Virus genome (UHGV): UHGV-2192570
DNA length: 21,366 nucleotides
Source: a virus
Strand: one strand, 5' to 3'
Made by a program: the position numbers. Positions 9,001 through 12,000 of the stretch are shown here, piece by piece (positions within the stretch are counted from its first letter, which is position 1; each line of letters starts with the position of its first letter).

Positions 9001-12000
9001 TAATGTCGTCCCACTTTTCGGAGTGTATTTTTAATTAAATCAATAGATTATGTGTAAGTGGGACAACTGGGACAACTGGGACGACGTGTTTTTGTATATA
9101 TATAAAAAAATAAATTGAGAGGATGAATTCATGAGTGAAATTACTGTTAAAAATATCTCACCTGCGGTAGCTGGCTGGTGGGCGAAGTTCAGAGACGACG
9201 GCACGGAATGGTACAGCCCGATTGCTGCATGGGCGCTTTGTGAGGTCGCCCCCTGTAATACGGGATGTGTGTATCAGGAGATACTACCCGTCTTGCCAGG
9301 TGAAGCAGGCATGGAGCCGCATTATTCTGATTGTGGGGCGTGCGAGTGCCTTTATCTGCCGGACAAGAAGTTTGTTCACTGCGGGGAGTCATGGGTATTT
9401 GCCTGGTATCCGGTTGACGATAACCATCAACGCTAAAACCAGTGAGGTGGACGTATGACAGCACAGATTGCAGCTTACGGGCGGCTGGTGGACGACCCGC
9501 AGGTAAAACAGACCAGCAAGGGTACACCCATGACGCTGGCGCGTATGGCGGTATCTTTGCCATGCAGTCAGGCACAGGACGGACAGGCGACGTTATGGCT
9601 ATCAGTCCTGGCATTTGGTAAGCAGGCCGACGCGCTGGCGAGACATGAAAAAGGTGACCTTATCAGCGTGGCGGGTAACATGCAGATCAGCCAGTGGACC
9701 GGACAGAACGGAGAAATACGGCAGGGCTGGCAGGTTATCGCTGACAGCGTAATCAGTGCCCGTTCGGCGCGTCCTGGCGGGAAGCGGGGGCAACAGGGGA
9801 AGGCGACCGAAGCACTGGAAAGAGCAAAACGACAGACCGGACAGCAGGGAAATCAGCCACCAGCGGGAGGTGATGACCCGTTCTCTGACGATATTCCTTT
9901 CTGAATGACAGGAGCACAACATGAACCAGCAGACCACACAACAGGACCAGACCACACGCAGACCCACGGAGCGCCCATCATGGCGACACATGACGAAGCG
10001 GCAGCGAAAAAACCACAGACGCGTAAACCGACTGGCTGAGTACTGGCCTGAACTGTTTGGGGCAGAGACGATAAAGCCCCTGAAAACGGGCATAATACGT
10101 GATGTGCTTGAGGACGCTAAATCACGGGAATTACCGATTGGTCATGGCGTATTACGTGGCGCATTAACCTCATACATCCACACGACGCGATACCTGAAAG
10201 CCATTGTCGCTGGTGGCCCTCGGTATGGACTGAACGGGCAGCCTTGCGGGGAAGTGACGTCGGATGAAAAAGCCGTAGCCCGTGGGATACTGAAACAGCG
10301 ACTGGAGCAGATGAAGCAGAAAAACATCCAGCAGTAATCAGCCGGAGGTAAAGCCAGTGATAACGGACAGCGTGGCACAGAAACTTGAGGAGCGCGGTTT
10401 ATGGCGACGTGCGGCGACCCGATGGGCTGAGGTTCTTCTTCATGCAGGAACGGACAGGGAACGCGAGGAAGCTGCCAGACGTCGGGCGATATGCATCAGT
10501 AAAACCCGTCGTATGCCTGAACAACTGGTCACCTTTGGCGATGTGAAAAAGGCCGCAGACAGAACGCTGAAAGAGATGGGGATTAATCCACAGGATGAAT
10601 GGAGAAGTTACAGCTTCAGTGATGCAGGCGACGATTTAGCGCTATCGTGATACGCATCTCATCGCCGTATTTGCTCAATTATCGCGATTCGCTATAATCA
10701 CCACCGAAGAGCCGTTGATGGTGTTCGCCTCTGGCAACTGGAGCCAGACTGCATGAAGCCAGTCAGCGGCTTTTCAGCACTCATTTTGATGTGTACTTGT
10801 CACACACATCGGGATGAGTGAATGACGAAAACATCACGGTGATTTCGTCATGCCGCGATAAGAATGTTCCCCTTTGGGCAATTGAAGCCCTCTGTGCAGA
10901 AGGTTATCGCGGTCAGGTTGTGATAAAAACGCGCCTCTTTGAGCAATTGAAGCTCACTGTAAAGCGGCTTATCACAGCAGGCTGTAACGGGCGCTCATCT
11001 TCTGGCAACTGAAGCCACCTGTACAGAGACCCGTTACGGCTGACCCTGAATGATTTCGCCCCGTGCAATTGAAGCACCCAGCGGAGTTATTCAGGGTTTT
11101 TTATTGCCCCTCCACCAGCACCACATCTGTAGCATTGATGCGTATACATTCGCCGTCAATTGCACCATTCCGGCCCTCACCGTCACGCACCACAACAGAA
11201 TGACCAGGCAGGCCATAACGCGCCACCTTTCGACGAACACCATCACCAGCGCCCTCACGACGCTCAAACACATTAATCCGCTCAAGAAGACCATCACGCA
11301 CCATAGCTTCCAGCGTGCGCCTTGTTGATTCGATCTGATACCGGCTGTTGAATGAATCCATACCATGCAGCAGGTAAGCCACACCGGAGACATCAAACGG
11401 CGGGTTGCCAATTTCAACGCTGACCCACGCCAGATTGTCGGGAGTGAAGTAACTGAGGATCTCTTTTTTGTATTGCGTCAGTCTCATAATGGCCTTTCTT
11501 ATTGTAGGATGAGTCCCTCATACAATAAGCCATAAGGCAAATTTTGAAAGGACAGAATCGGCGAGGGCAACAGGTGATACGTGATGACAAGGTTGAAGCG
11601 CTGGAAGCACAAGGGTTATGCGATGGGTTGCGGCAATATGAGGCAAATATGAATATTCAAATTGTTGTGTTGTGAGGTACGCAAGATGAAAAAAATTGAT
11701 TCTTTACGAATAAGTAAAGTAGCTATTATATCAGTATCTTTATTATTTCTTAGCGCGTGTTCTACAAATAATATTGAGAATATGCCGAGAGATGCGCGTG
11801 TAAAATTTGCTCTAATGAGGGCTTATTCAGATAACAAGTTTGATAATTCAACAGTTATCGGCGAAGTGTTAGGATTGAGTTGCGCCAGACAACTTGGAAA
11901 AACATTAGTAACACCATTGCCAGGGGGAAGCGCTATTGCTACATCCTCTGAGGGCGACATTACTTCTGAGTCGGATGCAATACAGGACATGCGATATAAA

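Follow-up and report, generated by a model that had tools for sequence, protein, structure and literature searches.

A FinO-domain gene and an array of Stx-phage-related hairpins in a PICI-type island of Escherichia coli: a possible FinOP-like module

Proteins with a FinO domain bind to hairpins of the terminator type and help antisense RNAs to pair with their targets (PMC9977716, PMC9674577, PMC8136791). With respect to phage satellites, published surveys already list ProQ and PerC among the accessory genes of phage-inducible chromosomal islands (PICIs) (PMC13612085, PMC10111431), the former being a 2026 survey of Enterobacter cloacae satellites which reports the two genes without functional analysis, and a single-stranded DNA-binding protein (SSB) is part of the replication module in Gram-negative PICIs (PMC10111431). 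An RNA encoded by a satellite and acting on a phage is likewise on record, as SviR, a small RNA of the Vibrio cholerae satellite PLE, acts on the gene expression of phage ICP1 (bioRxiv 10.1101/2022.04.08.487710). Against this background, the present analysis deals with the UHGV virus genome UHGV-2192570, a stretch of 21,366 nt (in the following the window, always taken at its full length), which is an integrative element of E. coli with a PICI-like island of roughly 15 kb. At its centre stand four genes at 9131-10650, the third of which codes for a ProQ/FinO-domain protein (in the following the FinO gene) and the fourth for a PerC-family protein, and an array of RNA hairpins directly behind them.

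An earlier note on this DNA, made from the sequence alone, had proposed that the FinO-domain protein and the adjoining structured RNA locus form a dedicated RNA-protein regulatory pair. What this proposal missed is the main point, namely that the hairpins are copies of an element of the helper phage. This homology suggests an RNA-based route by which the island could act on its helper, with a gene of Shiga toxin (Stx)-converting phages as the candidate target.

Hairpins shared by the island and Stx phages

Between perC and a convergent gene for a 128-aa protein no coding sequence (CDS) is annotated. The structured RNA that the earlier note had placed directly downstream of the operon is evident there, as positions 10651-11110 fold into seven consecutive hairpins with a minimum free energy of -189 kcal/mol and a folding z-score of -9.1 on the + strand versus -4.5 on the - strand. 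Five of the hairpins (units A to E, Table 1), about 60-70 nt long, share the apical element NNGC-AAYTGRA-GCNN, and the string GCAAYTGRAGC has five matches, all on the + strand, where 0.07 are expected. The units are about 62-71% identical among themselves and follow each other at start-to-start spacings of 65, 62 and 60 nt, which excludes a coding repeat; the corresponding 64-aa open reading frame (ORF) at 10818-11012 was discarded for this reason, and relatives have no PGAP CDS there. Because the island does not contain the complement of the loop motif, any antisense target would have to lie outside it. The loop AAYUGRA fits the YUNR U-turn pattern of antisense RNAs.

The putative sigma-70 promoter of the array scores under the threshold of a consensus scan and is predicted to start transcription near G10706. 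A 37-nt promoter stretch, ATTTGCTCAATTATCGCGATTCGCTATAATCACCACC, is identical in five islands (the window, L001, L002, L005 and L096), the FinO genes of which go down to about 79.5% identity to that of the window (L001-type lineage). At the other end, hairpin E carries a T-tract after its stem on the + strand only. Rfam has no match at E<=1 in 10650-11110, its matches in the window being C4, isrK and int-alpA (see below) plus two weak ones outside the array. A lambda-type nut/boxB site was rejected because the loop has 7 nt and no GNRA-like pentaloop, and because a boxA-like stretch is not conserved between alleles.

Beyond the islands, BLAST searches with the array returned short matches in Stx-converting phages and prophages, where they lie inside an 8.4-kb 'LPD38/LPD5 domain' gene, always in antisense orientation to it. 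Hairpin B matches this gene with 98-100% identity over 61 nt in 175 phage records including L0134 of phage 933W, and hairpin A with 94% over 69 nt in another allele at an equal gene position. In 933W (AF125520, L008) the hairpin is found at 7001-7061, and at an equal position in L003, L004, L009-L086 and L102-L181. In phage phi24B the gene product, gp47, comprises 2811 aa, is present in virions and has been proposed to be an ejection protein (bioRxiv 10.64898/2026.04.10.717836).

In 70 of 76 IMG/VR phage loci, which were collected with a 250-aa segment of L0134, the loop motif occurs at the equal gene position, down to about 42% protein identity; the outer stems in these loci are wholly different yet complementary, a T-tract always follows the last hairpin on the antisense strand, and four phage contigs have two hairpins in tandem. 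A motif scan of IMG/VR, about half of the matches of which arose by chance and were removed with a covariance model, added further metagenomic phages with new stems, again antisense within open frames of 1000-2800 aa. Amongst the phage allele classes the arms are 48-67% and the loops 91-100% identical, the 5' flank is 93-98% identical among the 933W-like classes, and in the protein the hairpin region corresponds to a hypervariable stretch of roughly 22 residues around an invariant GLQLP. Most of 15 alleles have an element TTGCGR, 17 nt, TAT(A/T)TT at 5-7 nt before the hairpin, which is weak in some divergent contigs. With this promoter-like element, the long hairpin and the U-tail, the phage element looks, from its sequence, like an undescribed cis-antisense small RNA; no published description of the hairpin was found, and a full-text literature search for its sequence gave no match. 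The Pas small RNAs of enteropathogenic and enterohaemorrhagic E. coli (EPEC and EHEC) prophages are encoded at different loci. A programmed -1 frameshift on the sense strand, made up of an A-run and the hairpin, was also rejected, as the A-runs are out of the X XXY YYZ frame in three alleles and the asymmetry of the G-U pairs favours the antisense strand.

Selection on the RNA structure was assessed by aligning 42 distinct hairpins, from islands and phages, to the model. In this alignment 73.7% of cells pair, as against 62.3% in shuffles (0/500), and the covariation score is 0.311 versus 0.150 in shuffles (0/500) and 0.05-0.18 with slid partners, with changes on both sides at 14/17 pairs. The ungapped register used here understates pairing because every sequence alone folds into the full outer helix. 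The mean z-score per hairpin is -3.9 for phage alleles and -3.6 for island units, and with about two G-U pairs per hairpin stability is greater on the antisense strand in 27/30 phage alleles and 13/17 island units. Between islands, the apical stems of orthologous units differ by compensatory changes (GAGC/GCTC versus GGGC/GCCC, and TGGC/GCCA versus GGGC/GCCC), and in L096 unit E has a rebuilt middle helix.

Each of the five units in the window is closest to a different phage allele class, with best identities of 64/68 for A (L004), 64/68 for B, 52/68 for C, 50/68 for D and 53/68 for E (L058). The complementarity to the gp47 gene is 94-100% for units A and B and 74-78% for the other three. Independently of the hairpins, the Q antiterminator of the island shares 87-91% identity with its counterparts in Stx1 and Stx2 phages, the Stx phage of EDL933 among them, and therefore suggests Stx phages as partners of the island. 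By the homologies of Q and of the hairpins, Stx phages are the candidate helpers by which the island would be induced and transferred, and its Q could act on the late promoter of the helper and hence on stx expression.

The linkage of the array with the FinO gene was counted in 5426 complete E. coli genomes, with the FinO gene being scored at a coverage of at least 80%. The FinO gene was found in 116 genomes, the array in 113 and a contiguous FinO-perC-array block in 114, and an array without the FinO gene was not found in this set. In the same genomes the array is better conserved than the FinO gene, with identities of, e.g., 93.5% versus 81.4% in NZ_CP089034 and 88.9% versus 85.0% in NZ_CP038380.

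The post-origin operon and its island

The four genes were recovered with the limits given in the earlier note (Table 1). They are separated by gaps of 16-19 nt, and the Shine-Dalgarno-like sequences before them, read directly, are GAGAGGA, GAGGTGGA, AGGAG and GGAGG, in gene order. All three domain assignments among them held in profile searches, and the call of a PerC-like protein, put forward as tentative, turned out to be the strongest of the three. The fourth name, a Cys-rich protein for ORF1, is apt for this copy with its 7 Cys in 101 residues and not for the family, in which C37 alone is invariant; the conserved signature is aromatic instead (GWWAKF, EWYSPVAAWALC). Profile searches with ORF1 gave no Pfam or NCBIfam match, and its homologues, hypothetical proteins, are spread across the Enterobacterales. 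The all-beta AlphaFold (AF2) model, at a mean confidence (pLDDT) of 85.6, has no fold match in the PDB at E<=0.001, and with a single conserved Cys and an empty fold search a zinc or Cys-cluster protein was ruled out. As sister islands hold two other ORFs, of 109 aa and 139 aa, in place of ORF1, its position can be regarded as a variable slot.

The SSB ends in GGDDPFSDDIPF, with the canonical acidic tip ...SDDIPF. The perC gene has a GTG start 8 nt after its GGAGG; its product also matches phrog_994 and phrog_10396 ('transcriptional activator') and reaches 18.5 bits with the ANR family, below the cut-off of 32. In relatives, perC overlaps the FinO gene by 4-32 nt and is translationally coupled to it. 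PerC is known to activate the LEE1/ler promoter in EPEC and EHEC.

In the FinO-like protein the PF04352 match spans residues 31-135 (profile positions 4-107/109). The scores with the NCBIfam equivalog models remain under their cut-offs (57.6 versus 136 for FinO and 55.8 versus 127 for ProQ), and the protein is therefore a member of the family and an orthologue of neither FinO nor ProQ. In phmmer comparisons with solved structures it matched ProQ (5nb9, E 2.8e-11), FinO (1dvo, 4.1e-11), RocC (7rgt, 2e-9) and NMB1681 (3mw6, 5e-7). In an alignment with E. coli ProQ, the residues equivalent to K35, R58, Y64, R69, Y70, R80 and G85 as well as the PCGE motif are invariant, and the equivalent of K54 is replaced; for K35, K54, R58, Y70 and R80 of ProQ, roles in RNA binding have been shown genetically (PMC7192607). 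An Arg-rich N-terminal segment, WRHMTKRQRKNHRR, is conserved, and the Arg-rich segment WRHMTKRQRKNRRR ahead of the FinO domain is common to all island homologues. E. coli assemblies contain an annotated protein with 100% identity; a scan of genome contigs with the FinO protein gave a single, uninformative Serratia locus.

Table 1. Coordinates of the features of the window and the evidence for them
Feature	Positions	Strand	Evidence and remarks
Tyrosine integrase	1-1254		
int-alpA RNA	1299-1366		Rfam RF02996, 38.6 bits vs 35.8; directly 3' of integrase gene
Rha and AntA antirepressor-type genes	between int-alpA RNA and isrK/C4 RNAs		
isrK-like and C4 antisense RNAs	5653-5841		52.1 bits (isrK-like), 71.9 bits (C4)
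DUF927 primase-helicase gene	6628-8769		
Iteron cluster, putative island replication origin	8795-9085	none	12 x TGGGACRAC; directly after DUF927 gene
ORF1, 101-aa all-beta protein	9131-9436	+	phrog_27268 (unknown function)
SSB	9455-9904	+	PF00436 56.3 bits (cut-off 26); TIGR00621 67.5 bits (above cut-off); phrog_44
FinO/ProQ-domain protein, 138 aa	9921-10337	+	PF04352 82 bits (cut-off 27)
PerC-family protein, 97 aa	10357-10650	+	PF06069 99.2 bits vs 22.6; profile positions 1-87/90
Putative sigma-70 promoter of array	10671-10698	+	TTGCTC, 16 nt, TATAAT; directly after perC stop
Hairpin A, loop AACUGGA	10706-10776	+	94% identical to one gp47 phage allele
Two hairpins without loop motif	10778-10851	+	inverted repeats I2, I5; fold
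Hairpin B, loop AAUUGAA	10852-10912	+	98-100% identical to 933W-type allele
Hairpins C and D	10916-11040	+	nearest phage alleles 74-76%; stems differ by compensatory changes
Hairpin E and T6 tract	11043-11103	+	inverted repeat I1; fold; intrinsic terminator of array
Convergent 128-aa gene, conserved core gene of satellite family	11101-11487	-	AF2 pLDDT 73.7
Q antiterminator	13300-13695		PF06530 179 bits

The convergent 128-aa gene, whose family is spread across the Enterobacterales, ends with a stop codon that falls within the A-run facing the array terminator, so that its transcript would run antisense into the array; the protein model consists of four helices and beta hairpins, with weak winged-helix-like matches only. 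A 151-aa ORF at 11662-12117 carries a lipoprotein-like signal (...LSACS) and shows weak, sub-threshold similarity to the YbjQ, DUF4156 and RcsF families.

That the operon belongs to a satellite-like island, as had been proposed, is borne out by the surrounding genes and RNAs (Table 1). The order of integrase, alpA, primase and origin, the size and the lack of a full set of structural genes are those of PICIs, no structural gene being found up to about 15.4 kb, and a contig from ENA (L095) has a gene order equal to that of the window. The putative origin just upstream of the four genes is real as a pattern, with 12 copies of TGGGACRAC where 0.29 are expected. The region of the C4 and isrK RNAs is a P1/P4-type RNA immunity region. 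These RNAs sit within a mechanical ORF at 4033-6066 (677 aa, Ash domain), inside which the AT skew changes sign at 4500-5500; in relatives, Icd-like genes and small minus-strand genes are annotated in this region, and the ORF is probably not one real gene.

The homology of the window to E. coli islands stops at about 15432. Beyond this point there are two low-GC genes at 15958-17401 (GC about 0.36) and, on the minus strand, a homologue of major capsid protein E (17787-18863) and a weakly lambda-D-like decoration gene (18811-19194), and 15433-21366 may represent either the remains of a prophage or a second element with capsid genes. In a 57-kb contig classed as viral by IMG/VR (L144, IMGVR_UViG_2740892231_000011), an island-type array with three model matches on one strand is found at 5484-5834, which suggests that a satellite there adjoins or is embedded in a predicted prophage.

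As annotated in RefSeq, islands of this kind measure about 13-15 kb, are located at tRNA-Gly (by ETT2) or between yicC and dinD, and are almost confined to Shiga toxin-producing E. coli (STEC) and EHEC. The order single-stranded DNA-binding protein, ProQ/FINO family protein, PerC family transcriptional regulator is annotated in more than 100 STEC/EHEC genomes. Taken by itself, the gene cluster is therefore already annotated, ordinary and typical of Gram-negative PICIs. Distant satellites with an AAA_25 helicase, a D5_N/Pox_D5 primase or DUF927 keep SSB-FinO-PerC or FinO-PerC.

A FinOP-like reading and its rivals

Put together, these observations are compatible with a FinOP-like module of chaperone and antisense RNA aimed at the helper phage, a tentative reading to which we assign a probability of roughly 0.45. 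According to this reading, 9131-10650 would be the post-origin operon of a PICI-type E. coli satellite, in which the SSB would serve the replication of the island itself, and the FinO-domain protein and PerC would form a translationally coupled regulatory pair. Behind this operon, the EHEC lineage would have acquired an array of helper-derived, antisense-type hairpins, giving an island RNA of about 400 nt with seven hairpins, apparently with its own promoter and ended by an intrinsic terminator. Five of the hairpins represent diverged copies, one per allele class, of the antisense hairpin in gp47 of the short-tailed Stx phages. The FinO-domain protein might then bind and stabilise the terminator-type hairpins, as FinO does with FinP on F plasmids, and promote a loop-loop contact via the AA-YUGR-A loop, after which the hairpin would pair with its complement in the gp47 mRNA of the helper, and by this means the satellite could modulate or prevent the synthesis of a virion protein in several variants of the phage. 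The sequences show the identities of the genes, the covarying RNA structure, its antisense homology to the phage gene and the close linkage in E. coli. Transcription of the array, its binding by the FinO-like protein and an effect on the phage are what we infer from the comparative analysis. A more far-reaching version is less probable, namely that a multi-allele array captured by a family of EHEC satellites and the FinO chaperone exert trans-acting, FinOP-like control of a helper virion protein, that the phage itself carries a conserved cis-antisense small RNA, and that the hypervariable stems record an arms race between the two.

A number of observations weigh against such a module. In the distant FinO-PerC satellites (L087-L091) there is no array, no match to the hairpin model and no phage-derived patch, plain terminators being found behind perC, so that the FinO gene did not evolve for the array. 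In turn, satellites with a Zn-ribbon/Toprim primase, to which a homologue of the convergent 128-aa gene led, show SSB-PerC without FinO, and because of them SSB-PerC can be taken as the core and the FinO gene as an optional insert. The FinO gene is thus an optional, older module, the role of which cannot depend on the array, and chaperone and RNA genes do not always occur together as they do in a FinOP-type system. In L001 (E. coli 2015C-3121, 13639-14086) the FinO-like gene is frameshifted at an A-run after residue 30, with RefSeq annotating only a 98-aa remnant, and the array is complete; the same A-run is present in the window at about 10005-10012, and the frameshift could be a sequencing error, decay or slippage. 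The 3' U-tail preferred by FinO domains is found in hairpin E, weakly in A and in no others. Furthermore, near-identity to the sampled phage alleles is limited to units A and B, with C, D and E at 74-78%, and in O111:H8 strain 08-4347, where an island and a 933W-type prophage reside together, the corresponding unit agrees with the allele of that prophage at 60/73 positions only, with outer stem, apical stem and loop being identical and the internal loops differing; strict antisense tracking is therefore not seen. Part of the conservation of the loop and of the promoter-like element may moreover reflect the protein, as the variable loop positions Y and R are codon third positions in the phage, the loop region encodes GLQLP, and the promoter-like element overlaps the conserved DIRK and KIL codons. 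Finally, a satellite moving in helper virions would itself need gp47, which makes a benefit of gp47 repression doubtful. Of the dedicated RNA-protein pair in the earlier note, the co-occurrence in E. coli thus stands, whereas the word dedicated is not established in view of FinO-PerC without hairpins, the array beside a frameshifted FinO gene and other candidate RNAs such as C4 and isrK.

As a separate observation, three of the SSB-PerC satellites have non-coding gaps of 0.5-1.1 kb behind perC (L098 5883-6612, L099 6634-7779, L100 5921-6468), which are rich in repeated TGCGCA/GCGCAGT motifs, a different repeat system at a position equal to that of the array. Analogous phage-derived arrays behind perC were not found in other satellites.

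The main rival reading takes 9131-10650 as a plain replication and regulatory operon, with the FinO-like protein serving other RNAs, be it C4, isrK or small RNAs of host or helper, and with an unrelated array working, e.g., with the host ProQ or alone. This has a real chance of being correct, though a clearly smaller one than the FinOP-like reading. C4 and isrK, encoded in the same island and also in the islands L005 and L006, are at hand as alternative partners, FinO-PerC is present in satellites without an array, and the array is intact next to the frameshifted gene of L001; in addition, no FinO-domain gene was found in the hairpin-bearing Stx phages, so that no FinO protein encoded by the element itself can be required for the phage hairpin to work. 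However, the FinO-bearing satellites L087, L090 and L091 are also without C4 and isrK at gathering score, which leaves that pairing no better supported, in E. coli genomes the array was not found away from the FinO gene, and RNAs consisting of a hairpin and a U-tail are the typical ligands of FinO domains.

An invariant loop on freely varying stems, and island units which differ from the resident phage allele, would also be expected if the hairpins were decoys or a signal at the DNA level, i.e. a multi-copy mimic of a site for packaging, replication or a hairpin-binding protein, titrating or recruiting a phage or host factor. The copying of helper cis-sites is classic in satellites, as exemplified by the biology of Staphylococcus aureus pathogenicity islands (SaPIs) and P4. 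Such a role is nevertheless unlikely, given that the T-tract and promoter-like elements are present on one strand only, that G-U pairs stabilise the antisense strand more in 27/30 alleles, and that the late gene harbours the element in its central part, a long way from the terminase genes, the latter rendering mimicry of a pac site in particular unlikely; we also know of no candidate protein binding these hairpins. That the array has no function of its own is the least probable of the explanations considered and can be given very little weight. Islands and Stx phages do co-reside and exchange sequence, as seen for the Q genes, so that recombination debris is conceivable, and unit E is a good terminator shared with the convergent gene, as would fit a terminator stack insulating the operon from the latter. 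Yet the edges of the hairpins are exactly where the homology to the phage ends, a T-tract is missing from units B, C and D, stem pairing within the islands is preserved through compensatory changes, a coding repeat is excluded by the unit spacings, and the array is better conserved than the adjacent coding gene.

Significance and comparison with known systems

Beyond the descriptions found in the literature are the conserved antisense hairpin in the ejection gene of Stx phages and the array of multi-allele copies by a FinO-domain gene. If the FinOP-like reading is true, this would be the first phage satellite to pair a FinO-domain chaperone with helper-derived antisense hairpins, and the FinOP principle would be extended from plasmid conjugation to satellites in conflict or cooperation with their helpers. 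In addition, the Stx phages, as drivers of EHEC virulence, would be found to have a conserved RNA element in their least understood gene, and islands with an Stx-type Q, occurring almost only in STEC/EHEC, could influence the expression of phage late genes and hence of Shiga toxin. If the gene calls alone hold, what is left is an ordinary PICI accessory cluster that has already been annotated.

With respect to architecture, the island is most similar to Gram-negative PICIs such as EcCICFT073 and to P4-like satellites, with which it shares the integrase, AlpA, a Bro/Rha/AntA/Icd zone with C4 and isrK, the primase, an iteron origin, the SSB and accessory genes, as well as a size of about 15 kb, integration at tRNA or yicC sites and the lack of capsid genes; in contrast, neither a helper-derived hairpin array nor a role for the FinO-like gene was found in published descriptions of PICIs. 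Type III toxin-antitoxin systems (ToxI/ToxN) also have tandem structured RNA repeats of some tens of nucleotides on mobile, phage-related elements. However, in ToxI near-identical 36-nt units are followed by a co-oriented toxin gene, whereas the island has diverged hairpins of 60-70 nt and a convergent next gene, which is winged-helix-like at best and has no nuclease signature, and such a system was therefore ruled out on its architecture.

SviR of PLE is a satellite-encoded RNA acting on helper-phage gene expression, as is proposed for the array, but it is a single small RNA, unrelated in sequence, host and architecture, and not a set of helper-derived hairpins beside a FinO-domain gene. As in FinO/FinP-traJ of F-like plasmids, FopA/Inc-repZ and RocC/RocR, a mobile element here codes for a FinO-domain protein of small size, extended by a basic N-terminus, and putative stem-loop RNAs ended by a terminator are found nearby, the loops of which fit the YUNR pattern and would be complementary to hairpins of the candidate target mRNA. 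Unlike FinP, the island RNA is encoded in trans, as a helper-derived array of five variants and not as a cis-antisense RNA to a gene of its own element, its candidate target is within a coding region and not in a 5' untranslated region, and the FinO gene is also found in satellites that have no array.

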